DNA of 61,952 bases from an uncultured Haliangium sp. (GTDB taxonomy: Bacteria > Pseudomonadota > Gammaproteobacteria > GCA-001735895): NCBI GenBank assembly GCA_964195735.1, contig CAXMQY010000127.1, forward strand, positions 1 to 61,952, given 5' to 3'. Under the pieces are notes generated by a model, which did no database searches, had not been told where the DNA came from, and saw nothing but the letters and a program-made list of their open reading frames with translations. Every line of letters begins with the position of its first letter. Position 1 is the stretch's first letter. The translations under genes were made by a program, and so were the position numbers. This document shows positions 32,801-47,270 of the stretch, one piece after another.

Positions 32801-33335
32801 CTACGTAAAGTCGATTACCGGCGTCGCCGGCGTATCCATGCTCGGTGACGGTACTGTGGTTACCGTTCTCGATCTGGCCTCATTGTTACAGGCGCGCAAT
32901 ACAGGTAGTGACGCATACCGGGCCGGCACTAACATGGCGCCGGCAGAAACAGGCGCTACAGCTTTGCCAAAGGTATTGATCGTCGACGATTCACTCAGCG
33001 TGCGTAGCTCTCTGTCCCAGTTGGTGAGCGACGGTGGTTATCGAGTCGTTACCGCAAGAGATGGATTGGAAGCGGTGAGCATGCTCGAAGTCGAAAATCC
33101 GGATATGGTGCTTACCGACCTGGAAATGCCGCGCATGAACGGGCTTGACCTGGCGAGTTACATTCGTCATTCGAATCAGTGGAGCCAATTGCCCATTGTC
33201 ATGATCACTTCCCGCACCATGGCAAAACATCGCGAACAGGCCAGCCAGGCTGGAATCAGCCAGTACATTACCAAGCCGTTTAGCGAAGACGATATATTGG
33301 CATCGATTGGCACCGAACTGGCAATGAGCTCCTGA
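29868..33335 (+). CDS. Hybrid CheA-type histidine kinase (ChpA/PilL-like: Hpt, HATPase, CheW, REC)
   Basis: AHTLKGSG (Hpt), HMLRNAVDHGIE, DDGAG, SGRGVGMDVV, a CheW domain and a C-terminal REC (IVDDS, TDLEMPRMNG, ITKP). Confidence 0.93.
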   Translation: MSEVEATGTEALLGLISMALDELSDAVMLSQVEEPVELQQIFCKHIDNLIEVSEQAGLVVLKTIAEGMIIDLASAGSDLDPERGMDVIEWLSNIQLHLSMPDDEENVELLLSPLTEESQALVAIALQELANNGGTMAIGGSGTAVDTTPESSVIQVQQAGDIEIDLAEFPVASSVDENLAEKEESGALETVTFEENETEFDTDDILGMLASELHEVAPQLSELALTISNTSSDETLTQAVESYSELVSRVGAVSKELGLDGLMLVCDFILNNLSLLASLPAGDRILPLDVLQGWPKVVVDHLTSPDDDSRCIAVIDFLERDSWPEPLPYPEMRGFIEGLTKGLELSSEFEAEQREIEASADDVSLEMSADASPELIDAFFAESPSHAESLSRLISAISRGEKVQENLEAAQRIAHTLKGSGNLVGLKGIANLSHHLEDIFEYIAKHKIKPPQMLANTMQEVADCIETMLESLQGMAPPPDDAQRILQELLDWANRIDSGNLRDADFSDEDANAANQAISVEVDETVTEGRIERRQKPDGGELVAESRNESIRVPLKILDNIFRVVSETAITTGQIQERLNRLEDSEKMIRKNDNSLQQMRYELENLVSIRGMAARHRGSSGDNNKDFDPLEMDEYDEYYGATHSYIEGVADSREILRSFTSEVYELNALFLMQQRLNKELQQVVMTTRMVPVSMISARLQRAVRQACRATGKQAELTIVGQELLLDGDVLNKLADPLMHMLRNAVDHGIEGSEVRLASDKPTSGQITLSFRQEGNNVLVQCSDDGAGLNYERIRKTAIDKDLLGESESVDNPALARMILQPGFSTSKNITQISGRGVGMDVVHNTIQSLNGGMDITDATAGGTQISLRVPITLLTSHCLLAGVGKDRIFAIPTISLTQILSPGTGKIGKVGERLSYQLGKEVYDACSLNSLVGVEQQNGGDDIENSSVLLVQSATGITAVTVDRVVTSYDLVVKNMGAYVKSITGVAGVSMLGDGTVVTVLDLASLLQARNTGSDAYRAGTNMAPAETGATALPKVLIVDDSLSVRSSLSQLVSDGGYRVVTARDGLEAVSMLEVENPDMVLTDLEMPRMNGLDLASYIRHSNQWSQLPIVMITSRTMAKHREQASQAGISQYITKPFSEDDILASIGTELAMSS

Positions 33336-33356
33336 TCAGGGGGCGAGAGATAAACC

Positions 33357-33797
33357 ATGGCGGCAACTAACCTGGCTGTAATCAGTTTTGACGGAGTTCA
33401 CCTGTTGTTGCCGCAGCGAGCTGTAGCTACTGTCGAAATGACCAGCAGCATTATCAGTAATGATATCCATGGAGAATCGATAGGGCAGTTGAAAACGACT
33501 TCGGGTGAGTGGCCGGCATACGCGCTTCAGGCTGATTTCAATGCCTGCACACAGTGTCCAGCTCGATATCGCTACTGTGTCGCAATCAACCAGGATAACC
33601 AGGAAGCCTTTTCCATTGCCTGCGAAGAAGTCAGCTCGATTACCATAGAGAATGAAGATGAACTCAGGCCCTTGCAAACCTGCATGCGTGCTCCGGATAG
33701 TCCGATTGAAGCTGTGATGCTTAAGGGCAACAAGTTGATGCTAGTCAGCAATGTCGAAACCATGCAACGGTTTCTGTCACGGAGGGCCGCGGCGTGA
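33357..33797 (+). CDS. CheW-like protein (ChpC-like)
   Basis: LLLPQRAVATVE start and position directly after the hybrid CheA. Confidence 0.6.
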   Translation: MAATNLAVISFDGVHLLLPQRAVATVEMTSSIISNDIHGESIGQLKTTSGEWPAYALQADFNACTQCPARYRYCVAINQDNQEAFSIACEEVSSITIENEDELRPLQTCMRAPDSPIEAVMLKGNKLMLVSNVETMQRFLSRRAAA

Positions 33798-34267
33798 CGG
33801 CAAGCCAGGCCTGGTTGCTCGACTGCGGCAATTCGCTATCAATCGCTGTCGGATTTCATGAAATGGCGGAGCTATTGCAAAACCATAACAGCTATAGCGT
33901 ACCCGGGTCTCCGGGGTATTGTTCCAGTCTACTGGTCTGGCAGAACAACAGCCTCGTACCGGTAATGGATCTCGCAATGCTATCCGGCAAAAAACAGGCC
34001 GACAATGAAGTCCCTTTCGTTAGCATACTCAGCTACCAGGAAGCGCCGCGGATGCCACTTCAACACCTCGCATTGAAAGTCAAAACGGCACCGCGAAGAA
34101 TCCTGATCGACGATGAGCAGGTTTGTGATTTCCCGCAGGGGCCAAACTTTAGCCTGCTGCGACCGGTCACCTTATCCTCTGTTCTACACGAGGAAAATGC
34201 AGTCATGATTATCGATATCGCACGCCTGTGCTCGGCCGAATTCCGTGACCTGGCAAATGCGGCCTGA
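33794..34267 (+). CDS. CheW-like protein
   Basis: VPGSPGYCSSLLVWQNNSLVPVMDL resembles the CheW core; the GTG overlaps the upstream stop. Confidence 0.7.
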   Translation: MTASQAWLLDCGNSLSIAVGFHEMAELLQNHNSYSVPGSPGYCSSLLVWQNNSLVPVMDLAMLSGKKQADNEVPFVSILSYQEAPRMPLQHLALKVKTAPRRILIDDEQVCDFPQGPNFSLLRPVTLSSVLHEENAVMIIDIARLCSAEFRDLANAA

Positions 34268-34326
34268 AGTGATTTAGCAGAGGCTTACCGCCCGAGCCTG
34301 GGTGTGTAATCGGCAAGCATCGGACA

Positions 34327-34358
34327 AAAGAAACGGCATCCTGGAATGCCGTTTCTTT
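34327..34358. terminator. Bidirectional intrinsic terminator
   Basis: AAAGAAACGGCAT-cctgga-ATGCCGTTTCTTT, 60 bp after the chemosensory operon. Confidence 0.8.
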
Positions 34359-34373
34359 CATCTATTTAAGCTC

Positions 34374-34525
34374 GTCATTGCGGACCCACGGGGCCTAAAT
34401 ACCCAAAGGGCACAAGAGCGCAGCGAAGCAATCTACCGATCCCGAGCCAGCCATATGGAGATTGCTTCGTCACTGCGCTCCTTTATGCCCTTTGGGTATT
34501 TAGGCCCTGTGGGTCTCGCAATGAC
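34374..34525. repeat. Long CGTC-tagged palindromic element (REP doublet)
   Basis: Arms 34374-34434 and 34459-34525 are near-perfect inverted repeats: GTCATTGCG...GAAGCAATCT and AGATTGCTTC...CGCAATGAC. Confidence 0.9.
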
Positions 34526-34562
34526 GGTTGTTGGGCTTAAGTAAGTGCCATTCGGGTCAGAG

Positions 34563-34619
34563 CTAGTCGTAACGACGAATTTGCTCGAGTAATTCCTCGG
34601 CCTGGAAGGGTTTGGTAAT
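34563..34619 (-). pseudogene. Relic C-terminus of a response-regulator receiver domain
   Basis: Minus strand reads ITKPFQAEELLEQIRRYD*, preceded in frame by TAG; no upstream REC sequence is recognisable. Confidence 0.6.
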
Positions 34620-34728
34620 CTAAGACAATTCCTGTCCAGATTTACCTCGCTATCGGGATTAAACGGGGAAACAGGGAAACCCCCGGATTGACTGAAGCAG
34701 CATACCTTACACCTGCATTCCCTATATA

Positions 34729-34756
34729 GATGCGCATAATGTATATTATGTAAAGT
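34729..34756 (+). other. dif: dif site (XerCD chromosome dimer resolution site)
   Basis: GATGCGCATAA-TGTATA-TTATGTAAAGT versus E. coli GGTGCGCATAA-TGTATA-TTATGTTAAAT; intergenic; KOPS polarity flips here. Confidence 0.92.
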
Positions 34757-34956
34757 TGAGCATAAATATTTCCAACCAATAGAATCGAGATTAATGATCG
34801 CCTCAAAAGTATGCCAATCACACGATCAAGTTAGCGTTAACCGCCCTGTTCCGTATATTGAGCTGACTGGCGCAATTTCGTTTCAATTAAATTCGCGTCA
34901 TGGAAACGGCACCCGACAACGTCATGAGGCTGTCATGAGGGACACACACTCTGAAA

Positions 34957-35058
34957 ATGCTGCTACCGCTGCAATTGCTGGCCTACCATATCGCGCTGAT
35001 ACTTGAGTGCGACGTCGACCAACCCCGCAACCTGGCAAAAAGCGTCACTGTGGAATAG
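34957..35058 (+). pseudogene. glmS: Isolated GlmS C-terminal fragment (33 codons; contains the attTn7/TnsD-binding determinant)
   Basis: Translates as [33 protein letters not shown]. An in-frame TGA at 34936-34938 means no longer gene is present. Confidence 0.88.
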
Positions 35059-35158
35059 CCCGTATGGATGATTGCGCCGAGAACCTGGGGCTCCGCTAAC
35101 GGGTTGGGTTATGTATCCGGCGAGAATTGGCACAGCGGATAGTGAGCGACAAGGAGGT

Positions 35159-36208
35159 TCAAGCGCCCGTCGACAAACCGATGCCGCCACGAATCTCGCC
35201 GGATTCAACCGAACCCCACAGAACAGAATGAGATGGCGGCAGCGCCCGATGGGGCGCCGATAACCAGATTCTCCACAGACAGCGCTGCCTGCCGGAACCC
35301 GGATCATCTTCAAAGGCGGTCCTCGAATGGTAGATCACATGGTTATTGATGAACTGAACATCACCCTTGGCAAGCACCATATCAAAATGCTGTTCTTCGG
35401 CGAGCAGCGCGAGAGTATCCAGGGCTTGCCATTGCCTGGGTGAAATTTCCGGGGCCCCCGGTACGTGCTCCAGCGCCTCGATAAAAGTACGGGAGTAGTG
35501 GCTGGTAAACTTTCCATCTCGAACGCCCCAGACCGGCAGCTGGTACCAGGCATTTTCCCCATTCGCCTCTTCACCCACGCGGCTGCGCGGTAAATCACAA
35601 TAGAGTAAATCGCACAATTCGGGGTAGCGCAGCAGCATCTCATTGTGAACCGTGACGGAACTCGCGATTTTGCTTAACCCGCCCCGACTGGCGACGCCGG
35701 TACAAAGCAGCCCTACTATATCGGTGCGGTCGGTGTGGAAGCGCAACTCGGCATTCGATGCTGTTCGGGCGCGTGATGATAAAAATTGCCCATTTTCTGT
35801 TGGCAGCTGTCCGTGGCGCTCGCCAACATCGCCCTCTTCCGCGCGAATTTCTCGTAATAGCTGGCCATCCGAATTCTGGAACACTGGTTGTCCCAGGTGA
35901 CAGGCAAGCCCCATCCAGACAAGCTCGAGATCTTCCCTGGGCCAGCGCTCGACAGGCAAACCTCTCAACCGGACAAATCCACAGCCATCCTCGAGTTCAC
36001 TTGCGATTTTTACAATTTTCGATTTAACGACATCGAGTGGAAAATGGTCAGCGCGAACACTGCGAAAGTTGAGCTTCTTCTCCTTGCAATGTCGAAGTGC
36101 CTCGCCAATTTCATCCAGATCCGATTCTTCCAGGAAATACTGCCAACGTGGATCATCCTTGATGTCCAAACCCTTCCAGGCAGCTTTAGCTTCGATAATT
36201 TCTGTCAT
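35159..36208 (-). CDS. TauD/TfdA family Fe(II)/2-oxoglutarate dioxygenase
   Basis: GCGFVRLRGLP, FHTD (HxD), GGLSKIASS and NNHVIYHSRTAF (distal His/Arg). Confidence 0.88.
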   Translation of the reverse strand: MTEIIEAKAAWKGLDIKDDPRWQYFLEESDLDEIGEALRHCKEKKLNFRSVRADHFPLDVVKSKIVKIASELEDGCGFVRLRGLPVERWPREDLELVWMGLACHLGQPVFQNSDGQLLREIRAEEGDVGERHGQLPTENGQFLSSRARTASNAELRFHTDRTDIVGLLCTGVASRGGLSKIASSVTVHNEMLLRYPELCDLLYCDLPRSRVGEEANGENAWYQLPVWGVRDGKFTSHYSRTFIEALEHVPGAPEISPRQWQALDTLALLAEEQHFDMVLAKGDVQFINNHVIYHSRTAFEDDPGSGRQRCLWRIWLSAPHRALPPSHSVLWGSVESGEIRGGIGLSTGA

Positions 36209-36810
36209 CGATTTGCGTCGACAGCCATGCGGAACCTCAGCTTGTTTTCGACCGCGTCGCGGGTCGGCATGACGCGTTCGGGCTGCTCCGTTGCGACCCG
36301 CACCAGCAAAAAGCGAACCGTTCCGCGGCGCTGAAACCTGTCCCGGATATCCTCGAGCTCATCCTGCGTCGATACCCGCCATGAATTGCGGATGCCGCAG
36401 CCCTTCGCGATGGCACACAGGTCGCTACCGAGACTGGTGTGGCTTGGCTGCATCCCGGTTTCGCCGTAAACCCCATTATCGAGCACCAGTATGGCAAGAT
36501 TCTCGGGCGCCTTCGCCGCCACGGTCGCGAGGCTTCCCATCCCCATCAGCATTTCACCGTCTCCGGTGACTACCAGCACGTCCAGGTCGGGGCGCGCCAG
36601 TGCGAGTCCGAGCCCCGTCGCAACCGCGCCGCCCATCGCGCCCCACAGGTAAAAATTGCGTTCGTGATCCCCGACCGCGGCGACATCATAGGTTGGCGAA
36701 CCCAGCCCGGTGATCACCGCGAGTCCCTCCCGCCCTGCGAGCAAATTACCGACCACCGTTCTGCGTTCCAGTTCGGCTGTCGGCTCCGCCCCCGCGTTCA
36801 CTCTACCCAT
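36205..36810 (-). CDS. TPP-dependent decarboxylase beta subunit (sulfopyruvate/phosphonopyruvate decarboxylase-like)
   Basis: NFYLWGAMG and GDGEMLM...DNGVYGETG TPP-binding motif. Alternative start GTG 36801 overlaps the alpha-subunit stop. Confidence 0.85.
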   Translation of the reverse strand: MGRVNAGAEPTAELERRTVVGNLLAGREGLAVITGLGSPTYDVAAVGDHERNFYLWGAMGGAVATGLGLALARPDLDVLVVTGDGEMLMGMGSLATVAAKAPENLAILVLDNGVYGETGMQPSHTSLGSDLCAIAKGCGIRNSWRVSTQDELEDIRDRFQRRGTVRFLLVRVATEQPERVMPTRDAVENKLRFRMAVDANR

Positions 36811-37316
36811 TTTTTCCGCCCCAGTAATTGCTGCGAAAAGATCACCGCATTGGCGACATTGCTGGCGTAGGCCATGTCGATGGCCGCGGCAACGGTTTCG
36901 CCTGCGGCCTCGGCATGGTCTACGCGGTAAGTCTGAAAATCACACAACTGCAGCACGCGCTCGGTGATCGAGCTCATCGGCACCTGCCACGGATTGAATT
37001 CGGCGTATTCCCCGCGCATGGTGACGATGAGCACCAGTGGAATGCGCGCGATACGCTGCAGCGACAGCATGTTCACGCAGTTACCGACCCCGCTGGATTG
37101 CATCAGTAAAACCGAGCGCATGCCGCCAAGCCAGGCACCCGCGCACAGCGGAATCCCCTCTTCTTCGCTCGTCAACAGCACATCCCGAATATCCGGGTCG
37201 CGCCTGGCATTGTCGATCAGGCTGGCATGCCCCGCGTCGGGCACATAGCCAATCAACTCGATGCGGCGTTCCTTTATCACGTCGTAGACGCCTTGTTGCC
37301 AGCCGTCAACCGTCAC
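36798..37316 (-). CDS. TPP-dependent decarboxylase alpha subunit (ComD/Ppd N-terminal-like)
   Basis: YVPD, SEEEG, GAWLGG, LLMQSSGVGN and MRG motifs. GTG 37316 overlaps the upstream TGA. Confidence 0.85.
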   Translation of the reverse strand: MTVDGWQQGVYDVIKERRIELIGYVPDAGHASLIDNARRDPDIRDVLLTSEEEGIPLCAGAWLGGMRSVLLMQSSGVGNCVNMLSLQRIARIPLVLIVTMRGEYAEFNPWQVPMSSITERVLQLCDFQTYRVDHAEAAGETVAAAIDMAYASNVANAVIFSQQLLGRKKWVE

Positions 37317-38140
37317 TGGATGGAACCCCAGATCTGCCGGACGCGGTCGCGAATGATCAGCGCTTCCTGCCAACGATCCGACAGCTCTTCGCCATCGGCG
37401 CCGGTCATCGCGTATTCGCGCGGGCCGAGCTCGCACAGGTAGTTCAGCACGGCATCGTCCGGATTACGCCGTTTCCAGGAGCGAAACCCGTAAGCCCACC
37501 AGTCGGCAAACTGGTCAAACCATTCGCGGTGATGCGGGAAACTGATCTGCAACTGTATCTGCTCGCGCGACGCGACGCGCCCCTGCAAGGCGGCGGAACG
37601 ATCGAGCACCGTTTCAATTTGAGACTGTGTTTCGCGTGTGATAGGCCACTTGAGCTCGCGCCCGACCACAAAATGGGACAGGTCCGCGCACAGCGCCATT
37701 TCGGGCACCGCATCCATCAATTGCAGGGTGTAAAGCATATCGGTGGTAATGCAATCGCGGTGCGTCTCGATAGTTACCGGCATGTTGGCATTGTAACAAA
37801 GCTCCAGCCAACCGCGTACGTAGAGGGTGCCCTCCTCCACGCTGAGCGGATACACGGCTCCAATGATGTTGAGATGGCGCGCATCGAGCGCAAGCGCAAG
37901 CTCCAGCGCTGGTTGCAGGGCATCGATGCTGTCGGGAAAGGCCGTCACCGTGCAGGCCAGCCCCCATTCCGCCAGCAAAGGCTGCAGGTTGGCCTCGGAG
38001 TAGTCGCCGTAGACGATATCGACGCCATCGAAGTCGGCGGCCGCGATTTTCGCCATCATTTGCGCCAGTGGCATTTCGACACCATTTCGTGGGCGTAGCG
38101 TCATCGCCCACAGGGATTGAAAGACTTCGAGTGTCTGCAT
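37313..38140 (-). CDS. Xylose-isomerase-like TIM-barrel protein (sugar phosphate isomerase/epimerase family)
   Basis: IETHR, ADLSH and CELGP putative metal-ligand motifs; GGAG RBS. Confidence 0.75.
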   Translation of the reverse strand: MQTLEVFQSLWAMTLRPRNGVEMPLAQMMAKIAAADFDGVDIVYGDYSEANLQPLLAEWGLACTVTAFPDSIDALQPALELALALDARHLNIIGAVYPLSVEEGTLYVRGWLELCYNANMPVTIETHRDCITTDMLYTLQLMDAVPEMALCADLSHFVVGRELKWPITRETQSQIETVLDRSAALQGRVASREQIQLQISFPHHREWFDQFADWWAYGFRSWKRRNPDDAVLNYLCELGPREYAMTGADGEELSDRWQEALIIRDRVRQIWGSIQ

Positions 38141-38151
38141 CGTTGACTCCC

Positions 38152-40569
38152 TTATCCGCGCAGGTATTCGTTGCGCGGATCGAACAGGGGATCGACGTAG
38201 AGTTTCGCCGCAATCATTTCCCCGAGAATCTCAATTTCGACCTCGCGCCCCTGTGTTGCCAGTTCGGTGGGCAGGAAGCCGAATGCTATGCTCTTTTGCG
38301 CATGATGCGAGTATCCGCCCGAAGTGACATAGCCGACGACTTCGCCGCCGTGCCAGATCGGCTCCCAGGCGACCGTATCGGCGTCGTTAGCCGCCACTTC
38401 AAAAGTACACAGCTTGCGCTCGACGCCCTGCTCGCGCTCGGCGAGCGCGGCCGCCTTGCCGATGAAATCGACCGGCTTGTCGTAAGCGACGAAGCGATCC
38501 AGCCCTGTTTCCAGCGGCGTGTAGTCAGGCTTGAATTCGCGCATCCACGAGCCGAACGACTTGTCCAGGCGCAGACTCATCATTGCGCGCATGCCGAAAG
38601 GCCGCAGACCGAATCCCTCGCCGGCCTCGCTCAACACCTGGTAGAGCGCTGCCTGGTTGTGCCAGGGCACGTAAATCTCGTAACCGCGATCGCCCGTGTA
38701 GCTGACGCGCTGCACGATGGCCTGGCACTGGCCGACATCGATCTCGCGCACCGACAGGAACGGAAAAGCTGCCGTGGAAACGTCTGCGCGCGTCACCTTC
38801 GCCAACAACTGTTGCGCCTTCGGCCCGGCAACCTGGAAACCGATTCGCAATTTGGACACGTTTTCGAGCTTGACGCCGCTATCCGGTAAATGTTGTTCGA
38901 ACCAGCGCATGTGATAGGCCTGCGCGCCAAACGAGGCGGTTACCTGGAAGCGATTTTCATCCAGGCAGGCAATGGTGAAATCGCCCATGATGCGACCCTT
39001 CGGACTCAACATCGGGTTCAGACTGAGGCGTCCGGATTTCGGAATCCTGCCTGCCATAATGCGGTCGAGGTATGCGCGCGCCCCCTCCCCGCTGAATTCG
39101 TACTTGCCAAAATTATGCACCTCGTTGAGGCCGACGCCTTCGCGCACCGCTCGGCACTCAGCGGCGACCGTAGCGAAGGCATTGGAGCGCCTGAAAGTCG
39201 GGATTTCATACGGTTCTTCGCCCTCGGGTGCGAAATAATTGACGTGCTCCATGCCATAGGCCGCACCAAATACAGCGTTGTGCTGCTGCCAGATTCCGTA
39301 GGCGGGCGTGGTATCGAGCGGCCGCGCTGCCGGCAGCTCTTCGTTCGGGTAAGACACGGTAAAGCGTCGCTGGTAGTTTTCGGTCACCTTGAGGCGCGTA
39401 TAGGACGGCGTGCAGTAGTCGCCGAAGCGCGCCACATCCATCGCGAACACGTCGCGCGACGGCTCGCCCTCGATCATCCATTCGGCCAGCGTGAGACCCA
39501 CGCCACCACCCTGGCTGAAGCCCGCCATCACTGCACAGGCCGACCAGTAATTGCGCAGCCCGGGCACCGGACCCACCAGCGGGTTACCGTCCGGCGCGAA
39601 GGTAAAGGGACCGTTGATAATGGTCTTGATACCTGCTTCGGCAAGTACCGGGTACCGCTTGAAGGCAAACTCCATCGAATCGCCGATACGATCGAGATTT
39701 TCGTCGAGCAGTTCGTGGCCGAAATCCCAGCGCGTGCCGTCAACGCCCCAGGGCACACAATTCTGTTCGTAGAAGCCGATCACCAGTCCGCGCCCTTCCT
39801 GGCGCAGATAGCTCTCCCCTTCGGGATCCATCACGTGCGGTAGCTCGGCATCACGCTCAACTACTTCGGCAATCGCGTCGGTGGCGAAATATTGATGCTC
39901 CATCGGGTGCAGTGGCAGGTAGACACCGGCCATCGCTCCGACTTCGCGTGCCCACAGGCCGGCCGCGTTCACCAGATGTTCGGCGACAATCGTACCCTGT
40001 TCAGTCACTACTTCCCAGCTACCGTCGACGCGTGCATTGGTTTCCAGCACCGGGTTACGCAGCATGATCTCGGCACCCTGCATCTGCGCCGCTTTCGCGT
40101 AGGCGTGCGTGGTGCCCGACGGGTCGAGGTGCCCGTCGAGCGGGTCGTAAAGCGCGCCGAGCACGCCCTCGGTGTTGGTGATCGGGCTTAAGCGACGGAT
40201 TTCCTCGGGCGTCACCAGCTCGGTGTCGAGGCCCATGTGTCGGTGCATGGCGCGCGCCGACTTGAGAAAATCGAGCCGTTCTGGTGACTCGGCAAGCGTC
40301 AGCCCGCCGACGTGGTGCAGGCTGCAGGATTGTCCCGTAATTTCCTCGAGTTCGCGGTAAAGCCGGATGGTGTAGCCCTGCAACGCCGCCATGTTGGTGT
40401 CGGCATTCAGCGTATGAAAACCGCCCGCCGCGTGCCAGGTCGAGCCCGAGGTCAGTTCGGAACGCTCGATCAACACGACGTCCTTCCAGCCAAGTTTGGT
40501 CAAGTGATAAATAACGCTGCAGCCGACGACCCCGCCGCCGATCACGACTACCTGAGCATGTGAACGCAT
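38152..40569 (-). CDS. GcvT-family FAD-dependent oxidoreductase (dimethylglycine/sarcosine dehydrogenase-like)
   Basis: VIGGGVVG, LTSGSTWHAAG (covalent FAD His), FAPDGNPLVG, SYTGDRGYE, SLRLDK and a C-terminal GcvT domain; 805 aa. Confidence 0.92.
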   Translation of the reverse strand: MRSHAQVVVIGGGVVGCSVIYHLTKLGWKDVVLIERSELTSGSTWHAAGGFHTLNADTNMAALQGYTIRLYRELEEITGQSCSLHHVGGLTLAESPERLDFLKSARAMHRHMGLDTELVTPEEIRRLSPITNTEGVLGALYDPLDGHLDPSGTTHAYAKAAQMQGAEIMLRNPVLETNARVDGSWEVVTEQGTIVAEHLVNAAGLWAREVGAMAGVYLPLHPMEHQYFATDAIAEVVERDAELPHVMDPEGESYLRQEGRGLVIGFYEQNCVPWGVDGTRWDFGHELLDENLDRIGDSMEFAFKRYPVLAEAGIKTIINGPFTFAPDGNPLVGPVPGLRNYWSACAVMAGFSQGGGVGLTLAEWMIEGEPSRDVFAMDVARFGDYCTPSYTRLKVTENYQRRFTVSYPNEELPAARPLDTTPAYGIWQQHNAVFGAAYGMEHVNYFAPEGEEPYEIPTFRRSNAFATVAAECRAVREGVGLNEVHNFGKYEFSGEGARAYLDRIMAGRIPKSGRLSLNPMLSPKGRIMGDFTIACLDENRFQVTASFGAQAYHMRWFEQHLPDSGVKLENVSKLRIGFQVAGPKAQQLLAKVTRADVSTAAFPFLSVREIDVGQCQAIVQRVSYTGDRGYEIYVPWHNQAALYQVLSEAGEGFGLRPFGMRAMMSLRLDKSFGSWMREFKPDYTPLETGLDRFVAYDKPVDFIGKAAALAEREQGVERKLCTFEVAANDADTVAWEPIWHGGEVVGYVTSGGYSHHAQKSIAFGFLPTELATQGREVEIEILGEMIAAKLYVDPLFDPRNEYLRG

Positions 40570-40588
40570 TCCAATTACCCCTGTTGAA

Positions 40589-41434
40589 CTACTCGCATTT
40601 CTGCAACAGCCCTTGCAGATAATCGCGAATTTCGTGTGGATGGACGATCGCCTTGCGGATCAGATCGTCGAAGCGATCGGTGATTCGTCGTATGTGGTCA
40701 ATGTTATTGACGATGATATACAGCTTGCCCAGAAACAGCGAAACCCGCATCGGTCCGAAGATGGTAAGCGAAATCGAATATGTCTGTTTACCATCGTACA
40801 GAAACCAGCGAAAACCGGGATACAACTCTTCGTTCAGGTCGATCATGCGCTGCAATTGCGCGCGCCGGTCGGCTACTGGAAAATCACGCCAGATACCTTC
40901 GCCTATCGCGAAACCATCCAGATGATGCAACGGCATACAGGTTTCCAGTTCACTGCCGGGATGGCGTTGTTGCAGCAACAACAGCTGGTTGTCGCGCACC
41001 GATTGATCGATCTTGCCGGAGCCATAGCGGTTGAATTCGTACTCGGCAACCGCTTCGGTTTTCAGCAGGTCCGGCAGCGTCGTCGGTACATAACGAATCT
41101 TGTAGCCGCGCGCCTCGCGATGCCACTCGAGGTTCTTCTCGAAAATACTGGTAGCGGAATCGTCGACCTCGAGCGCCTCGTGCACGATGTTGGCGCCCAT
41201 GCCGCCTTCCTGGGTGATGCCGAGCAGCCAGTCGATGCTGACCTGGTATACCTCGGCGATCGACAACACGGTATCGGCACGCGGCAGGCGTAGGTTATCG
41301 GTCGACAATAGCTGCGACAAGGTGGAGCGATCGACACGAATGGAGGTCGCGAACGAAGAACGGTTCAAACCACTGTGCTGGATAACGCGTTGCAAGCGCT
41401 CTTGGAACAATGTCACCCGTTCCTGCAATTTCAT
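40589..41434 (-). CDS. XRE-family HTH transcriptional regulator with a C-terminal sensory domain
   Basis: LNRSSFATSIRVDRSTLSQLLS..RLPRAD....IAEVYQVSIDWLLG HTH; ATGA overlap with the methyltransferase gene. Confidence 0.85.
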   Translation of the reverse strand: MKLQERVTLFQERLQRVIQHSGLNRSSFATSIRVDRSTLSQLLSTDNLRLPRADTVLSIAEVYQVSIDWLLGITQEGGMGANIVHEALEVDDSATSIFEKNLEWHREARGYKIRYVPTTLPDLLKTEAVAEYEFNRYGSGKIDQSVRDNQLLLLQQRHPGSELETCMPLHHLDGFAIGEGIWRDFPVADRRAQLQRMIDLNEELYPGFRWFLYDGKQTYSISLTIFGPMRVSLFLGKLYIIVNNIDHIRRITDRFDDLIRKAIVHPHEIRDYLQGLLQKCE

Positions 41435-42951
41435 TGCGCCAGCTCCAGTTCACGTCGGCGCTCGTTCGCAAATTGTTCCAGAGAAGTGCGAACCGTCGCA
41501 TCCATTTCCGGTTCTTCATAGCGCTCGAGGGTTTCGCGGTAAACCCGGTTGGCGCGCTGGTAAGCCGTCTGCTCGCCGTTTTCCGCCCAGGTTTCGAAAT
41601 TGCTCCAATCTGATACCAGCGGCTCGTAAAACGCCGTTGTGTAGTTGGCCAGGGTGTGCGCGGTGCCGAAGAAATGACCGCCGTGCCCCGCTTCGACGAT
41701 CGCATCGAGCGCCAGCGTGGACTCGTCGACTTGTAGCGGTTTCAGGGTTTCCGCCATCATCTGCAGCATGTCGATGTCGATGATGAACTTCTCGAAGGAT
41801 GCGCAAAGGCCGCCTTCCAGCCAGCCGGCGGCGTGCTTGACGATGTGTGCCCCACCCATCACCGCGCCCCACAACGACATTTGCGACTCCCAGGCGGCCT
41901 GTGCGTCGACGCAGTTCGAGGCATTGGTGTTGGATGAGCGAAATGGCATATTGTAGCGGCGCGTCAGTTGTCCGGTAGCCCAGGCCGCGCGCGTGTATTC
42001 CGGCGTACCGAAAGCCGGGGCGCCGCTGCGCATGTCGGCGTTAGAGGTAAAACCGCCGTAGACCATGGGTGCGCCCGGATTGACGATTTGCGACAGGGCG
42101 ATGACGCCGAGTGCCTCGGCATTCTGCTGCGCCAGCGCGCCGGCGATGGTGATCGGGCACATCGCGCCGGACAGCGTAAACGGGGTGACTATGGTGGGCT
42201 GGCCGTTTTGCGCCATTTCGATCAGGCCGTCGAGCATGGAGCCATCGACACGCAGCGGTGAGTTGGTATTGACCACGGTGATGATGCTGGGCTCGGACTT
42301 AAGCTGCTCGCGGTCGACGCCGCGCGCAATCGCGGTCATCTCGATGCCGTCGCTGACGCGACCGCCGCCGAGGCAATAAAGCGAAAAAGCGCGATCGGTC
42401 AGCGTCATCGCGGCCAGCGTGGCATCGAGGTGGCGCGTGTCCGGATGGATATCGATGGGTTCGACCGGGTAACCGCTGAGAAAGTCGATGACGTCAAAGC
42501 TCTGCGCCAGACGCAGGAAGTTGCAGTAATCCTCGAAATTTCCGGTGCGGCGCCCACCTTCCATGTCCGAGCTGTTGGGCGCACTCGCTACGGTGGTGAA
42601 GTTGACCGCATTGCCACCCACGAGGCGATTGCGTTCGGGGTTGCGCGAATGCATGGTGAATTGCGTCGGTACCGTGGCCAGGCGTCGCATCAGTTTTTCG
42701 CGGTCGATATAGACGCGTTGCAGATCCCAGTCGACGCGCGCACCGTCTTGCTCGTACAAACCCAGCGCGGATTCATTGAGAACTTCGAGACCGATTTCCT
42801 CGAGGATACGCATCGAACCGTCGTGTATCAGATCAAGCGCCTCTTTGCCCAACGCCTCTATCGGTTGATAGGGATTGAACAACTGTTCGGCCTTCGGTTT
42901 GACCAGTTCATCCGGCGTTGCCTGGCGGTTGCGACCTCTTCTGCGGCTCAT
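41431..42951 (-). CDS. Trimethylamine methyltransferase (MttB) family protein, non-pyrrolysine (MtgB-like)
   Basis: NTNSPLRVD, PFTLSGAMCPITIAG, GGFTSNADMRSGAPAFGTPE and HAAGWLEGGL motifs; no in-frame amber codon. Start 42951 is uncertain (alternative 42996). Confidence 0.92.
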   Translation of the reverse strand: MSRRRGRNRQATPDELVKPKAEQLFNPYQPIEALGKEALDLIHDGSMRILEEIGLEVLNESALGLYEQDGARVDWDLQRVYIDREKLMRRLATVPTQFTMHSRNPERNRLVGGNAVNFTTVASAPNSSDMEGGRRTGNFEDYCNFLRLAQSFDVIDFLSGYPVEPIDIHPDTRHLDATLAAMTLTDRAFSLYCLGGGRVSDGIEMTAIARGVDREQLKSEPSIITVVNTNSPLRVDGSMLDGLIEMAQNGQPTIVTPFTLSGAMCPITIAGALAQQNAEALGVIALSQIVNPGAPMVYGGFTSNADMRSGAPAFGTPEYTRAAWATGQLTRRYNMPFRSSNTNASNCVDAQAAWESQMSLWGAVMGGAHIVKHAAGWLEGGLCASFEKFIIDIDMLQMMAETLKPLQVDESTLALDAIVEAGHGGHFFGTAHTLANYTTAFYEPLVSDWSNFETWAENGEQTAYQRANRVYRETLERYEEPEMDATVRTSLEQFANERRRELELAQ

Positions 42952-43042
42952 TGTGCGTGACTCATGACGGACTCCCCCGATGGAACGTCTGATCATATGT
43001 GAGAAAACAACAGCGGTCTATAAGCGCTACAGTGGTTATTTA

Positions 43043-43058
43043 TAAACAATTTTGTTTA
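43043..43058. promoter_or_regulatory. Candidate operator palindrome upstream of the MttB operon
   Basis: TAAACAA-TT-TTGTTTA inside an AT-rich promoter-like region. Confidence 0.45.
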
Positions 43059-43188
43059 CTTAAATCAACAATATAATCAAGCCGTGACGGGATTCTCGGC
43101 CCAGTTGTTCGTGAATGTCGGCAAGATCAACAGTCGGTTGACGAATTCCAACGCCTTGTCATCTTAGGTGCAGGATTCCATTCTCGCG

Positions 43189-44004
43189 CTAGCGCAGATC
43201 GGGGTAAGCGCGATCGATGGCGAATTGTTCGGTTTCGACGACGTCGTGGTAATCCTGCAGTTGCACGCTGGCAAATCCCGTCAGGTGCAGCGTGGCTCGA
43301 ACCGCGCCTTCACAGGCCGTGAGTGCCTGGTTGAGCCGATCGACAATTGCGCCAGTATCGTTTTCGGTAATGGCCGTAAGCGGCATCACCAGTGGCAGTC
43401 CGCAGGTTTTTACGGTGTCGCCAATAATCCGCACCCGCGCGACCAGTTCGGGTTGCCAGTCGGCAATCAACTGGTAACTGACGCAATCGATGGCGGCGAC
43501 ATCGGCCGCGCCGCTCGCCACCGCTTCGAGGCTGTGCAAATGCCCGCCACTGGTAAGCACGCGCGAAAAAAATGCACCCCCGTCTTCATGTATGCCTGCG
43601 ACCGCATGGCGCAATAGGTTCATGCCACTGTTTGAATCCGAGTTGTTCATTGCCGTAACATGATCGCGGCATTCGGCCAGCGATTGAAGCTTCGACTCGG
43701 CGCCAACAATGATACGACTCGAGTACCGCCTGCCCTCGGTACCCTGGACGTTGAACAGTGGCACGCAAAACGGACTGAAATCATCTTGCAGGTGTGATAC
43801 CAGCGGATAGCCACAGGTATGCCCGAACCACAGCCCGGGCTCGCGTAATATCGCCGAGCCGTGCTCGAACTTCAGTGTTATTTGCCCGGGTGCGATATCC
43901 GACAGGTCGAAAAAATGATCGAACAACTGTTGCCAGGCATTTTGTTGCGCCTGGGTAAATGCGTACATGCCGCAGGCGATAAATCGATTGGAATCCCCGT
44001 TCAT
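43189..44004 (-). CDS. PhnD/SsuA/transferrin-like substrate-binding protein (no evident signal peptide)
   Basis: HTCGYP, YSSRIIV, NNSDSNSG, SGGHLHSLEAVASGAADVAAIDCV motifs. Start 44004 or 44037. Confidence 0.8.
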   Translation of the reverse strand: MNGDSNRFIACGMYAFTQAQQNAWQQLFDHFFDLSDIAPGQITLKFEHGSAILREPGLWFGHTCGYPLVSHLQDDFSPFCVPLFNVQGTEGRRYSSRIIVGAESKLQSLAECRDHVTAMNNSDSNSGMNLLRHAVAGIHEDGGAFFSRVLTSGGHLHSLEAVASGAADVAAIDCVSYQLIADWQPELVARVRIIGDTVKTCGLPLVMPLTAITENDTGAIVDRLNQALTACEGAVRATLHLTGFASVQLQDYHDVVETEQFAIDRAYPDLR

Positions 44005-44166
44005 GCGCTCAAAGTAGCGCGCAATTTCGCAAAACACCAGAAATGATACCTACGGACTCCCGCAGAAAATATTTTTATCCAACCAGCGCTTGATCCCGAC
44101 CGGGTATTTCCAGTTAAACTAGCGTCTTTTCTGCCCGCAAACTGACGCTGAAAGGATGGCACGCTA

Positions 44167-46410
44167 ATGCCCCACTCCACCTATCTCCCCGAAAAAATGG
44201 GTTCGGCCGTGGTCGAACCGAGCGGTAGCTTCGAAGCCGGCTCTTACCAGGAATTCACGCTGACCTATACTGCCGGCTATTTCGGCATCGACGATACCGG
44301 TTCGCTCAAGGTCGTTCACCGCTTCGCCTCGGACATGGGGCGCCCACAGTTCGACAACCCACAGGCCGCCAATTACGTTACCGTGGAGGCCAGCAACGGC
44401 GCGGTGCTGCACGTCGAATACGACATGAAGCGCAATATTCGCCCCTGGGACAAGACGCTCTACATCAAGGTGGTGCGCGGTTTCCTGCGCGAAGGCGACC
44501 AGATAGTGGTGCGCTTCGGCGATCGCCGCCAGGGCTCGCCCGGCATGCGCATCCAGACCTTTTGCGAGGCGACCTTCGAGTTCAAGGTGCTGGTCGACGC
44601 GATCGCGACCTACAACTACGTCGAACTACCCGAGCAACCCGTAATCGCGATCGTGCCCGGCCCGCCGGTATTGTTCAAGGCTATCCTGCCGACCTCGCGG
44701 CGCCAGGGCGAAAAATTTCGGCTGTGCATCAAGGGCGAGGATCGCTGGGGTAATCCGTCGAACCTCTGCGACCAGCAACTGGAGCTGCGCTCTAACTTGC
44801 CGTTCGATGCCCTGCCCGCAGGCATTCAGTTCGAACCCGGACAGTTCGCGCAAATTGTCGAGGGGCTTGCCGTCAGTCAAGCGGGCGATCTCGTCATCGA
44901 ACTACTCGACAACGAGGGCGGTGTCGTCGCCCGATCCAATCCCTGCCGCATCGTCTCGTCCACGGATCTGCTGCCTTACTGGGGCGACCTGCACGGGCAG
45001 TCCGAGGAAACCATCGGCACCAACTCGGCGCGTGATTTTTACGAGTTCGGGCGCGATAAGGCCTTCCTCGACATTTGTGTGCACCAGGGCAACGACTTTC
45101 AGATCACCACCGAATTCTGGCACTGGTTGAACGAACTATCTGCAGAATTTACCGAGGACGGCAGCTTCATCGTCTTCCCCGGCTGGGAGTGGTCCGGCAA
45201 TACCGGGCTCGGCGGCGACCGCAACGTGCTGCACATGCAGGAGGGCCGTCAGATCCACCGTTCCTCGCACGCACTGGTCGACGATTTGTCTGATGTCGAC
45301 AGCGACGCGACCTCGGCCGGGGATTTGTTCGAGGCGCTCAAGGGCGAAGATTGTACCGTTTTTGCGCACATCGGCGGTCGCTATGCCGATATCAAGGTCG
45401 CGCATGATCAGCGCCTCGAAAAAGGCGTCGAGGTGCATTCGGCCTGGGGCACCTTCGAGTGGCTGATCCACGACGCCTTCGAGCAGGGCTATCGTGTCGG
45501 CATATTGTCCAATTCCGACGGCCACAAGGGCCGGCCCGGCGCGTCGCACCCAGGCTCCACCAAGTTCGGCGCCTACGGCGGGCTGACTTGCGTTCTGGCG
45601 CCGGCTTTCACGCGCGCCGGCATCATGCAGGGCCTGCGCCAGCGCCATCATTACGGCACCACCGGAAACCGTGTCATTCTCGATACTCGCGTCGAATTCA
45701 GCGCGGACGCCGAACTGTTCAGCGACGACCCGCGCCTCGGTGACGTCAGTTCACAGACCGTGCGCGGCGCGATGATGGGCGACATTCTGCGCAGCGATGC
45801 CGAATCGGTCACTTTCACGATCGACGTCCACGGTACCGCCCCGATCGAACGCATCGACATCCGCAACGGCCTCGACACGCTGGAAGTCTATCGCCCGTAT
45901 AGCGAATCCGATCTTGGCCGCCGCATCCGCGTGATCTGGGAGGGATCCGAGTATCGCGGGCGTGGGCGCGAAACTATCTGGGATGGCCACGCCGAACTGC
46001 ACGACAACAGTTTCGATAGCCTGACTGCCATCAATCGCTTCAACATCGACAGGCGCTTCGAACAGACCGTACCCGGCCGCGTCGAATGGAGCGCACTCAC
46101 CACCGGTGGGTTCGGCGGATTCGAAGCGATGCTGGGTGATGCCAGCGCGGGCAGCCTCGAAATCGACACCGCGCTGATTCAACAGCGCATCGATATCGAC
46201 TCGATCGGTTACGATGAACAGATCTTCGAAAACGGCGGCATCGAGCGCCGTATCCGCGTGTTTCGCCTGCCCGACCAGAATCCGCACGAGTCGGTGCGCA
46301 TCGAACGCCAGGTTCCGCTGCGCGATGACCGGGACAATGCGCTCTACGTGCGTGTCACCTTCGAGGACGGCCACTACGCGTGGTCTAGCCCGATTTACCT
46401 GTTTCGCTAA
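44167..46410 (+). CDS. DUF3604-like PHP-family metallohydrolase, 747 aa
   Basis: YWGDLHGQS, FPGWEWS, DRNV, AH, VEVHS.WG and SNSDGHKGRPG fit a PHP/DUF3604 metal-binding pattern; beta-rich flanks. Confidence 0.72.
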   Translation: MPHSTYLPEKMGSAVVEPSGSFEAGSYQEFTLTYTAGYFGIDDTGSLKVVHRFASDMGRPQFDNPQAANYVTVEASNGAVLHVEYDMKRNIRPWDKTLYIKVVRGFLREGDQIVVRFGDRRQGSPGMRIQTFCEATFEFKVLVDAIATYNYVELPEQPVIAIVPGPPVLFKAILPTSRRQGEKFRLCIKGEDRWGNPSNLCDQQLELRSNLPFDALPAGIQFEPGQFAQIVEGLAVSQAGDLVIELLDNEGGVVARSNPCRIVSSTDLLPYWGDLHGQSEETIGTNSARDFYEFGRDKAFLDICVHQGNDFQITTEFWHWLNELSAEFTEDGSFIVFPGWEWSGNTGLGGDRNVLHMQEGRQIHRSSHALVDDLSDVDSDATSAGDLFEALKGEDCTVFAHIGGRYADIKVAHDQRLEKGVEVHSAWGTFEWLIHDAFEQGYRVGILSNSDGHKGRPGASHPGSTKFGAYGGLTCVLAPAFTRAGIMQGLRQRHHYGTTGNRVILDTRVEFSADAELFSDDPRLGDVSSQTVRGAMMGDILRSDAESVTFTIDVHGTAPIERIDIRNGLDTLEVYRPYSESDLGRRIRVIWEGSEYRGRGRETIWDGHAELHDNSFDSLTAINRFNIDRRFEQTVPGRVEWSALTTGGFGGFEAMLGDASAGSLEIDTALIQQRIDIDSIGYDEQIFENGGIERRIRVFRLPDQNPHESVRIERQVPLRDDRDNALYVRVTFEDGHYAWSSPIYLFR

Positions 46411-46418
46411 CACCGATT

Positions 46419-47270
46419 GTGATGCTGTTAACACCTCTTACCCCCCATCTCGGCGCCGAGATCACCGACATCGATATCCGTCAACTGGACGCTGCTGGCT
46501 TCGAAAAGCTGCGTCAGCACTGGCTCGATTACAAGGTGCTGTTTCTGCGCGAGCAACAGACAGGGCTGAATGAACTGCTGCATTTCAGCCGCCGCTTCGG
46601 TGAGTTGATGCGCCTACCCTACATCAAGCCGCTCGAGGATCACCCGGATATCATCCGCGTTCTCAAGGAGGAAGACGAGGTCGATATGGGCGTGTTTGGT
46701 GGCGACTGGCATTCCGATTTCAGTTTCCTGGCGGCGCCTCCGAGCGCGTCGATACTCTTCGCCGAACAAGTGCCTGCAGTCGGCGGCGATACCCTGTGGA
46801 TCGACATGGCGCAGGCGCTCCGGGCATTGCCGCGCGAGCAGCGCAGCCTGCTTGAAGGTAATATCGCGATACACAGCGGTCGCCCCTATGGCATTGCGCA
46901 CGCACCTGAGGAAAGCACCCGTTTCAAAGGGTCGATCGAGATCGAACGCGACAACCCGGAAGCCGACAATGAAACCCGGCACCCGGCAATTTGCCGCCAC
47001 CCGGAAACCGGCGAAGAAATGCTGTTCGTCAACCCCACCTACACCACGCGCATCGACGGCCTGCCAGCAGAGCAAAGCCGCCAGTTGCTGGCAGACCTGT
47101 ATCGGCACTGCAGCCGGCCCGAGTTCGGTTGCCGTTTCAGGTGGTCGGCGGGCAGCATCGCGATATGGGATAATCGCTCTACTCTTCACTATGCGGTCAA
47201 CGACTACGATGGCCAGCGACGCTGCCTGTATCGCATCACCATCGCTGGTCACGCTCCGCTTTCCGCCTGA
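46419..47270 (+). CDS. TauD/TfdA family dioxygenase (taurine dioxygenase-like)
   Basis: LGAEI, WHSD, GGDTLW and WDNRSTLHYA..R motifs. Confidence 0.9.
   Translation: MMLLTPLTPHLGAEITDIDIRQLDAAGFEKLRQHWLDYKVLFLREQQTGLNELLHFSRRFGELMRLPYIKPLEDHPDIIRVLKEEDEVDMGVFGGDWHSDFSFLAAPPSASILFAEQVPAVGGDTLWIDMAQALRALPREQRSLLEGNIAIHSGRPYGIAHAPEESTRFKGSIEIERDNPEADNETRHPAICRHPETGEEMLFVNPTYTTRIDGLPAEQSRQLLADLYRHCSRPEFGCRFRWSAGSIAIWDNRSTLHYAVNDYDGQRRCLYRITIAGHAPLSA

Follow-up and report, generated by a model that had tools for sequence, protein, structure and literature searches.

A shared, putative demethylation core and a lineage-specific tail in a predicted seven-gene operon of a marine-sediment gammaproteobacterium

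Does a compact series of seven genes encode a single dedicated pathway, or a widely shared core to which other genes have been added? The question is raised by a locus on the minus strand, positions 35159-42951 (35159-42996 with the longest open reading frame, ORF, of its first gene), of a contig of 61,952 nucleotides (CAXMQY010000127.1, assembly GCA_964195735.1). The whole contig, hereafter the window, belongs to a metagenome-assembled genome (G000, 3.4 Mb, 77% complete) of a marine-sediment bacterium. The locus consists of seven co-directional ORFs headed by a methyltransferase of the MttB superfamily, and an initial annotation, made from the letters alone, proposed that it is an undescribed pathway for an N-methylated compound, possibly a sulfonate or a phosphonate. 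As an observation the series of genes, with its junctions, is confirmed. Of the interpretation, a tight demethylation operon for a betaine other than glycine betaine holds as plausible; a recurring seven-gene pathway, and a sulfonate or phosphonate substrate, are not supported. The reading that we favour, with moderate confidence, is a core for the demethylation of an acidic, non-glycine betaine, followed by an add-on tail that would process the carbon skeleton.

The operon and its recurring core

In order of transcription, the operon begins with the MttB gene (41431-42951, with a longest ORF to 42996; 506 amino acids from 42951). It is followed by a helix-turn-helix (HTH) regulator of XRE type (40589-41434; HTH_3, 25.8 bits), whose C-terminal part of about 200 amino acids has no Pfam match. 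The third gene (38152-40569, 805 amino acids) encodes a putative FAD- and tetrahydrofolate-dependent N-demethylase of the dimethylglycine dehydrogenase (DMGDH) or sarcosine dehydrogenase type, in which the domains DAO (223 bits), FAO_M, GCV_T (205 bits) and GCV_T_C all score above their cut-offs and compose the architecture of that family. Behind DMGDH lie four genes that we call the tail: a divergent xylose-isomerase-like triosephosphate isomerase (TIM) barrel, putatively a metal-dependent isomerase, epimerase or dehydratase (37313-38140, 275 amino acids); the alpha subunit (TPPa, 36798-37316, with a GTG start) and the beta subunit (TPPb, 36205-36810; TPP_enzyme_C, 64.9 bits) of a thiamine diphosphate (TPP) decarboxylase of the split ComDE/RhiEF type; and an Fe(II)/2-oxoglutarate dioxygenase of an uncharacterised subfamily of the TauD/TfdA superfamily, TauD-like below (35159-36208; PF02668, 82.8 bits). 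These seven genes, their order on the minus strand and their family labels are those of the initial annotation, and ORF calls and family matches bear them out.

So does a direct reading of the sequence for the four overlapping junctions and the gaps of 19 and 11 bp. MttB and the HTH gene overlap by ATGA, 19 nt separate HTH from DMGDH and 11 nt DMGDH from TIM, TIM and TPPa overlap by GTGA, and TPPb and TauD-like by ATGA; between the two TPP genes the overlap is GTGA if TPPb starts at GTG 36801, and 13 nt if it starts at ATG 36810. The junction between TPPb and TauD-like is bridged by contigs of other sequencing runs, one from a different study spanning 35629-36329 (X2 record 4) and one from another run spanning 35619-37230 (X3 record 9); consequently, this join is not an assembly chimera. 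Differences in contig depth between core and tail carry no weight here, since such depths are summed over organisms. Judged by junctions and co-direction, the seven genes are in all likelihood a tight operon. A scan for terminator-like sites gave 12, against 9.9 +/- 3.2 in shuffles, which is not above the shuffle expectation, and a tRNA scan found none in the window.

The XRE regulator has one copy in the genome, and it was taken as the marker of the core because it is single-copy. Orthologues with no less than 71% identity to it are carried by 30 of the 61 genomes of the genus, where the match spans 199 residues or more, and by 28 metagenome contigs. Among the 29 other orthologue-bearing genus genomes, 20 were examined; those left out (G023, G032, G021, G034, G072, G026, G028, G022 and G011) are mostly short contigs or partial matches. 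In the locus tables, tblastn alignments under 50-60 residues (or under 40% query cover in the TIM-family loci) and weaker overlapping matches were dropped.

The pair formed by MttB and HTH is present in all 20 genus loci, and DMGDH is reached in 18, two contigs ending before it. The pair is also present in 24 of the 28 metagenome contigs, the other four beginning inside or after HTH. In the full-length loci of relatives, DMGDH is 83-94% identical. An extra oxidase of the DAO family (435 amino acids, MTOX/SoxB-like) stands between HTH and DMGDH in 13 of the 20 genus loci, and a transporter of the major facilitator superfamily occurs in at least 12. On the other side of MttB, a gene for a PhnD/AioX-like protein adjoins it in 19 of the 20, the twentieth contig ending inside MttB. 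The unit that recurs is the PhnD/AioX-like protein, MttB, the XRE regulator, an optional MTOX/SoxB-like oxidase and the DMGDH-like enzyme: a widely shared, putative demethylation core. A second group of HTH paralogues (41-45% identity, 13 genus genomes) was discarded, its members not being next to MttB or DMGDH in the four loci examined. The Protein Atlas offers only generic names for TIM and HTH.

Active site and helper genes of the methyltransferase

The MttB of the window matches PF06253 with 634.6 bits (cut-off 25) over profile positions 4-499 of 500, and the model of the pyrrolysine-containing trimethylamine methyltransferase, TIGR02369, with 298.2 bits against a cut-off of 525; its ORF has no in-frame stop. 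By these scores, it is a non-pyrrolysine methyltransferase of the MttB superfamily. Structure-linked matches include PDB 4yyc (E 5.8e-102) and MtgB (2qne/9yce, E 1.8e-94). The MtgB of Desulfitobacterium hafniense is described as holding glycine betaine via Y97 and F356, by cation-pi contacts, and via R312 and H348, which bind the carboxylate, with a Km raised several hundred-fold in the Y97A variant (Picking et al. 2026, PMC13080624).

The comparison of active sites that the initial annotation had suggested was carried out by mapping the MtgB positions through a HMMER alignment to 2qne/9yce, together with an alignment of paralogues and orthologues. Positions Y97, R312, H348 and F356 correspond to A137, R353, H388 and G396 of the window MttB (521-aa numbering): of the aromatic pair and the two basic residues that make up the MtgB-type set, only the basic residues are kept. 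The motif A/R/H/G is found in all four aligned orthologues (L035, L127, L130 and L136), and a paralogue of MttB on contig C56 has Y/R/H/G. Since the carboxylate binders are conserved, the substrate would keep an acidic group; and since the Y97 position is Ala across the aligned orthologues, with a Tyr-bearing paralogue in the helper cluster of C56, that substrate is probably not glycine betaine. The active site favours some other acidic betaine as the probable substrate, without proving it. The demethylation of a quaternary amine other than glycine betaine, as first proposed, is to this extent supported as plausible.

It had also been pointed out that the operon contains no corrinoid protein, which is true and is accounted for by helpers encoded in trans. 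On contig C56, an ORF of 235 amino acids encodes a B12-binding corrinoid protein; beside it are genes for methylenetetrahydrofolate reductase (MTHFR), a Pterin_bind methyltransferase, the reactivation protein RACo, an AraC/DJ-1 regulator and the Tyr-bearing MttB paralogue, the last about 7 kb from the corrinoid-protein gene. In aerobic marine bacteria, as outlined by Mausz et al. (2025, PMC12478193), MtgB enzymes share a corrinoid protein, MtgC, and a methyl-tetrahydrofolate methyltransferase, MtgD, that are encoded elsewhere. Under that scheme the lack of a corrinoid gene in the operon is expected, because the helpers are encoded in trans on C56. The corrinoid protein, the pterin-binding methyltransferase and the reactivation protein that an aerobic MtgBCD-type route requires are all in the genome, and we infer that those of C56 serve the window MttB.

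In the core, a quaternary amine of betaine type would lose N-methyl groups step by step. MttB would transfer one methyl group to the corrinoid protein, from which the helpers of C56 (corrinoid protein, pterin-binding methyltransferase, RACo and MTHFR) would pass it to tetrahydrofolate; this carrier would also accept the one or more methyl groups that the DMGDH-like enzyme removes next.

The alternative that survives best, though we hold it to be unlikely, is that glycine betaine alone explains the locus. MttB would produce dimethylglycine, the DMGDH-like enzyme sarcosine, and the optional oxidase or the same DMGDH glycine; the tail would be unrelated, or would serve a C2/C3 salvage like that of glyoxylate carboligase and hydroxypyruvate isomerase. 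All three types of core enzyme are known from the standard glycine betaine route. In E. coli, gcl and hyi encode a TPP enzyme, glyoxylate carboligase, and a xylose-isomerase-like TIM barrel, hydroxypyruvate isomerase; by analogy, the TPP and TIM-barrel genes of the window may recall this pair, but the window's TPP enzyme, which is of the ComDE/Ppd type, has no middle domain such as carboligases have. The conserved R312 and H348 equivalents would suit glycine betaine, as would the report that genes for later demethylation steps lie near mtgBCD in Alpha-, Gamma- and Deltaproteobacteria (PMC12478193). However, the residue that is Ala in the window and in four orthologues is the one whose loss so impairs MtgB (PMC13080624), and the genome already has the Tyr paralogue in the C56 helper cluster and 11 further MttB-family matches.

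In all, the genome has 13 MttB-family matches, with further pairs of MttB and DMGDH on contigs C91, C61, C13 and probably C109, which suggests a sediment gammaproteobacterium specialised on many methylated amines. Three loci of the genome are recorded here in their own right. The helper cluster of C56 (1-14000, L143), a complete set for B12-dependent methyl transfer, comprises a flavin reductase, the corrinoid protein, a protein with an MTHFR C-terminal domain, MTHFR, the pterin-binding methyltransferase, RACo, the AraC/DJ-1 regulator, the MttB paralogue, an AraC regulator and a DAO oxidase. On contig C93 (L144, 513-9492), a LysR gene is divergent from a class V aminotransferase, a DMGDH paralogue (47%), an M24 creatinase-like gene, a sulfatase and a TauD-like paralogue (30%); judging by its genes, this set would be another methylated-amine cluster, possibly for a sulfated compound. 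In the window, 9.5 kb from the operon, a gene of the homocysteine S-methyltransferase family with a BHMT/MtgE-like domain (52540-53478) adjoins an SMP-30/gluconolactonase-like gene.

The tail downstream of the dehydrogenase

That the seven genes form a recurring cassette is not borne out. Among the 17 genus loci covered for at least 4 kb past DMGDH, only G006, whose contig is also that of L035, carries genes of the TIM and TPP families after the core, in the order TPPa-TPPb-TIM; among the metagenome contigs covered for at least 1 kb past DMGDH, 6 of 12 carry TIM, TPP genes or both. In G006 and in these six contigs the tail genes are directly behind DMGDH, on the same strand. Four arrangements are found besides that of the window: TPPa and TPPb with TIM (G006/L035 and L132), TPPa and TPPb with the contig ending (L115), TIM alone (L117, L118 and L122), and a PALP gene, for a cysteine-synthase-like pyridoxal phosphate enzyme, with TIM (L120). 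A seemingly fused TPP gene in G006/L035 was resolved by a frame check into separate alpha and beta genes, as in the window.

The carriers of a tail are the closest relatives. Their XRE regulators are 88-92% identical to that of the window, against 72-77% in tail-less loci and 81% in G081, where DMGDH directly abuts a thiolase/FadB pair. The TauD-like gene is found at the core in none of the 28 metagenome loci and none of the 20 genus loci (0/48). Consequently, the expectation that the last four genes accompany the core elsewhere holds for TIM, TPPa and TPPb, in near relatives only and with differing orders, and fails for the TauD-like gene.

In the reading of an acidic-betaine core with an add-on tail, the tail would be a lineage-specific layer in a variable slot between DMGDH and thiolase/FadB. 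TIM and the split TPP enzyme would most likely act on the carbon skeleton after demethylation, a hydroxy- or oxo-acid being isomerised, then decarboxylated to an aldehyde, and the TauD-like dioxygenase would be a later acquisition. A more specific conjecture can be offered tentatively. The MttB group with Ala at the Y97 position may represent a new specificity of the superfamily, for an acidic non-glycine betaine (hydroxylated or sulfonated amino-acid betaines from algal osmolytes or betaine lipids are candidates), always with its own XRE regulator and PhnD/AioX-like protein; in the window lineage, TIM and the split ComDE-like decarboxylase would form a branch not described before, in which the oxo-acid skeleton left by demethylation is isomerised and decarboxylated. 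The initial annotation knew of no described pathway of this combination. In the library of papers searched, none connects MttB to a ComDE-type decarboxylase within a bacterial operon.

There is also the possibility, which we rate as improbable, that the tail has no metabolic tie to the core, having entered a site prone to insertions behind DMGDH as cargo, and is merely read through from the core promoter. The slot lends itself to this view: it is empty in G081, and in the window it holds TIM, TPPa and TPPb, the TauD-like gene, a palindromic repeat of about 150 nt and a low-GC chemotaxis cluster of about 9 kb. The TauD-like gene has a GC content at third codon positions (GC3) of 0.566, and its closest genus orthologues (G013 and G006) lie apart from core genes. 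TIM and TPP, whose homologues elsewhere do occur in many unrelated contexts, have on the contrary the codon composition of the host (GC3 of 0.73-0.74, the same as the core). Their junctions are overlaps or a gap of 11 nt that contains a ribosome-binding site; both families recur behind DMGDH in at least five arrangements, the window's counted; and TIM lies beside a distant MttB in six alphaproteobacterial loci.

Several points weigh against our preferred reading of the locus. The tail is missing from 16 of the 17 genus loci and from 6 of the 12 metagenome contigs, so that the core would work without it. Homologues of TIM and TPP are adjacent in none of the 79 other TIM loci and in none of the 8 loci of TPPb orthologues. 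The slot between DMGDH and thiolase, which also holds the chemotaxis island and the dispersed palindromic repeat, may be no more than a place where insertions accumulate. Glycine betaine needs exactly the steps that MttB, a sarcosine-oxidase-like enzyme and DMGDH would provide. At the F356 position the C56 paralogue and PDB 4yyc have Gly as well, so that this residue is not diagnostic and only the Y97 position separates the window MttB from them. Finally, the ORFs of other loci come from a simple longest-ORF script, and genes may be missed.

The identity of the tail enzymes bears on what they could do. The TIM protein scores 19.3 bits with AP_endonuc_2 (PF01261), below the cut-off of 31.1, and its orthologues in L035 and L036 score 32.0 and 37.3 bits. 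With its AF2 model (pLDDT 90.6), Foldseek retrieves UlaE, ketose 3-epimerases, IolE and Art22 at TM 0.56-0.67 and 12-18% identity, so that by its predicted fold the protein is a xylose-isomerase-like TIM barrel; a search of PDB sequences gave no match. In the alignment of its family, E125, H127, D153, H156 and E237 are invariant, of which E125, D153 and E237 would be metal ligands. Members of the family, at 44-76% identity, occur widely (in Herbaspirillum, Rhodoferax, Anderseniella and SAR116, among others), and genes found next to them elsewhere include those for PhyH dioxygenases, an alcohol dehydrogenase and a desaturase-like protein. In 6 of the 79 other loci, from SAR116/Puniceispirillaceae, Rhodobiaceae and an unclassified alphaproteobacterium, TIM is about 1 kb from a distant MttB (27-30% identity), the only independent hint that ties the family to quaternary-amine metabolism.

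A different set of genes was seen on the SAR116-type contig L092 (3238-17705) and on contigs of SAR116/Puniceispirillaceae and Rhodobiaceae, where TIM stands with a peptide/opine-type ATP-binding cassette (ABC) transporter, a fatty-acid-desaturase-like gene, an arginase-family gene, a distant MttB and an OYE/Pyr_redox flavoenzyme. This set is a candidate for a different quaternary-amine cluster.

The TPP subunits owe the association with sulfonates and phosphonates to their best NCBIfam names, sulfopyruvate and phosphonopyruvate decarboxylase, and TPPb to its nearest structure, RhiF (9iz3_B, E 1.2e-16). However, TPPa scores 120.6 bits with TIGR03845 (cut-off 147.95) and 65.7 with TIGR03297 (312.5), and TPPb scores 135.3 with TIGR03846 (221.5), 134.2 with PRK06163 (240) and 120.2 with TIGR03297 (312.5). 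Both subunits are thus below the cut-offs of the ComDE equivalogs (TIGR03845/TIGR03846) and of phosphonopyruvate decarboxylase (TIGR03297). Orthologues of TPPb, at 46-55% identity, were found in about 10 of 400 sampled Pseudomonadota genomes. In the 8 loci examined, the alpha/beta pair adjoins LysR in 4, elsewhere short-chain dehydrogenases, an aldehyde dehydrogenase, or a TctC receptor with an FAD-linked oxidase, and in none is it next to TIM, MttB, sulfonate or phosphonate genes.

The wider genome was searched for enzymes of either route. No phosphoenolpyruvate (PEP) mutase above cut-off was found (best 109.3 bits against 319.55), nor any PhnX, in a genome whose 77% completeness means that absence is not established. 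A true Xsc is present on contig C87 (1057 bits, cut-off 676), with no clear link to the operon.

The TauD-like gene, with a GC3 of 0.566 against 0.69-0.74 for the other six genes and 0.55-0.62 for the chemotaxis cluster, is by its composition a recent and foreign addition. Its closest homologues are 93-94% and about 80% identical, and its subfamily is large and environmental (1639 proteins at E <= 1e-10); the nearest genus orthologues are in G013 (61-66%, where the contig ends) and in G006 (48%, on another contig, among unrelated genes). H158, D160, H294 and R309, the iron triad and the 2-oxoglutarate-binding Arg, are invariant in 31 sequences and place it in the superfamily. The structures nearest to its AF2 model (pLDDT 93.0) are TtnM (7n7v, 29% identity, TM 0.76) and FrbJ (5eqn, 25%, TM 0.71), with amino-acid beta-hydroxylases next; TmpA and BBOX come at rank 42 and below in the Foldseek results, with 14-15% identity. 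The gene has no match to the taurine dioxygenase model PRK09553. Nothing in this evidence indicates a sulfonate or a phosphonate substrate. An identification of 7N7V with DfmD, which acts on trimethyl-aminoethylphosphonate, was considered and rejected: no crystal structure is given in the DfmD paper (PMC9296572), 7N7V is cited by no paper of the searched library, and Foldseek names 7N7V as TtnM.

The dedicated seven-gene pathway of the initial annotation, in which an N-methylated amino-sulfonate or amino-phosphonate would be demethylated, decarboxylated as sulfo- or phosphonopyruvate and cleaved by oxygenolysis, is the least probable explanation and indeed very unlikely: it drew on family names, and the true Xsc, the phosphonate hydroxylase FrbJ as second-nearest dioxygenase structure, a neighbouring binding protein of the Phosphonate-bd family and a taurine-dioxygenase-like gene in a divergent operon, also in G006, are met by TPP scores all below family cut-offs, TPP orthologues in 8 other Pseudomonadota genomes with unrelated neighbours, a dioxygenase that is closer to the polyketide hydroxylase TtnM and belongs to the operon in the window genome only, a binding protein that is nearest to AioX and ArrX, sensors of arsenic oxyanions, and lacks a recognisable signal peptide, the negative searches for PhnX and PEP mutase, and core-bearing genomes that mostly lack the tail.

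Flanking regions

Upstream of MttB, and on the same strand, a palindrome TAAACA-N4-TGTTTA (43043-43058) lies just upstream of a putative sigma-70-like promoter (TAGACC, 17 nt, TATGAT; 42992-43020). In an alignment of nine MttB-upstream regions the palindrome is a conserved block, kept in the distant orthologues L127, L136 and L161, which makes it a candidate operator for the XRE regulator. Both promoter hexamer regions are also within conserved blocks. By itself, the promoter scan gave 5 sites against 5.2 in shuffles, which is not above chance, and we retained only the promoter-like site that is backed by conserved blocks of the alignment.

The only good ribosome-binding site, GGGGGAG (42972-42978, minus strand), precedes a five-codon leader mini-ORF (42948-42965) whose TGA overlaps the ATG of MttB (ATGA). 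This arrangement is common to the window, L035 and L116, and is missing in more distant orthologues; in L155, L127 and L161 the ATG of MttB is directly behind the ribosome-binding site. The likely start of MttB is 42951, as first annotated, since the N-terminus aligns with orthologues from there, and since the in-frame ATG at 42996, which we rejected, is inside the conserved promoter-like block.

The adjoining PhnD/AioX-like gene (43189-44037, minus strand; PF12974, Phosphonate-bd, 65.7 bits) encodes a protein with a type-2 binding-protein fold; it is co-directional with the core in the window and divergent in most relatives. The PhnD model TIGR03431 gives 43.9 bits against a cut-off of 261.1, and the nearest solved sequences are AioX (E 2.3e-15) and ArrX. 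Read by eye, the translated N-terminus has no recognisable hydrophobic leader, and there are no genes for ABC permeases or ATPases in the window. For these reasons a role as PhnD, or as the periplasmic component of a transporter, was rejected.

Farther upstream is a divergent operon (44167-48099) with a DUF3604-like protein of 747 amino acids, a taurine-dioxygenase-like gene (46419-47270; 218.7 bits against a cut-off of 313, PRK09553) and a protein of 235 amino acids, in the same position in G006 (L154). To judge by these genes, it keeps a link of the locus with sulfonates possible.

Downstream, between the operon and thiolase/FadB, is the chemotaxis cluster (25493-34267, about 9 kb, GC3 0.55-0.62), with a response regulator, CheW, a Cache protein, a methyl-accepting chemotaxis protein, a CheA-like hybrid kinase and a second CheW. 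It is probably an inserted island, since it is missing at that position in G006/L035 and G081. Between it and the TauD-like gene is a near-perfect palindrome of about 150 nt (34374-34526; RNA fold -117 kcal/mol, z -15.4), with related copies on at least 15 other contigs of the genome, some also near MttB loci, as on C61 (6945-7014) and C94 (17301-17427). In the palindrome region the summed depth of metagenome contigs is very high, with many loose ends. The element looks like a dispersed miniature inverted-repeat transposable element or repetitive extragenic palindrome. A candidate MIR840 was discarded: when 33500-44500 was scanned with Rfam, the only match, to that family, stayed below threshold (67 against 150 bits), and the palindrome is not a miRNA.

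Significance and comparison with known systems

In the sea and in sediments, much carbon, nitrogen and methyl is exchanged in the form of methylated osmolytes, and it was not until 2025 that the aerobic, B12-dependent route for glycine betaine was published. Of the genus genomes searched, about half have the orthologue group considered here. Were its substrate to be found, the MttB superfamily would gain a specificity, the turnover of the compound in sediments a marker gene, and the locus would show how accessory enzymes bolt on to a common demethylation core. The locus is a variant of the recently described demethylation scheme, and not a fixed new seven-step pathway.

The known systems resemble its parts to different degrees. 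With the oxidative catabolism of 2-(trimethylammonio)ethylphosphonate by TmpA and TmpB, as presented in PMC9296572, it would share a quaternary-amine substrate and does share an enzyme of the TauD superfamily, but TmpA is only a distant fold match and no HD-domain TmpB partner was seen in the window. The nearest solved relatives of the TauD-like protein, the tautomycetin hydroxylase TtnM (7N7V) and the phosphonate hydroxylase FrbJ (5EQN), have the same His-Asp-His triad; they are tailoring enzymes of natural-product pathways with unrelated substrates, whereas the window protein belongs to an uncharacterised environmental subfamily. The TIM protein has in common with UlaE, ketose 3-epimerases and IolE the fold and the conserved acidic and His residues at strand ends, and differs from them by an identity of only 12-18% and by the partners of its family: PhyH, alcohol dehydrogenase, the desaturase-like protein and the distant MttB.

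ComDE, for sulfopyruvate, and RhiEF, for phosphonopyruvate, in the account of PMC12141560, are like the window TPP enzyme in having two subunits and no middle domain, and they are its best family and structure matches. The window enzyme is below every equivalog cut-off, its context appears catabolic rather than one of coenzyme M or phosphonate biosynthesis, and its orthologues stand with LysR, short-chain dehydrogenases or aldehyde dehydrogenase.

The closest parallels are those of the core. The MtgB of D. hafniense (2QNE/9YCE) has the fold and the family of the window MttB, with R312 and H348 kept; the differences are Ala for Y97, Gly for F356, an aerobic-type gammaproteobacterial host and the lack of a corrinoid gene in cis. 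From the aerobic MtgBCD route of Ruegeria pomeroyi, as outlined in PMC12478193, the window group departs by the Ala at Y97, its own XRE regulator and a PhnD/AioX-like neighbour without recognisable signal peptide, and the window lineage also by its tail of TIM, TPP and dioxygenase genes. The rest of that scheme is found here: a pfam06253 methyltransferase, DMGDH-type genes beside it, and a shared corrinoid protein, methyl-tetrahydrofolate methyltransferase, reactivation system and MetF2 encoded elsewhere, all four of them on C56.

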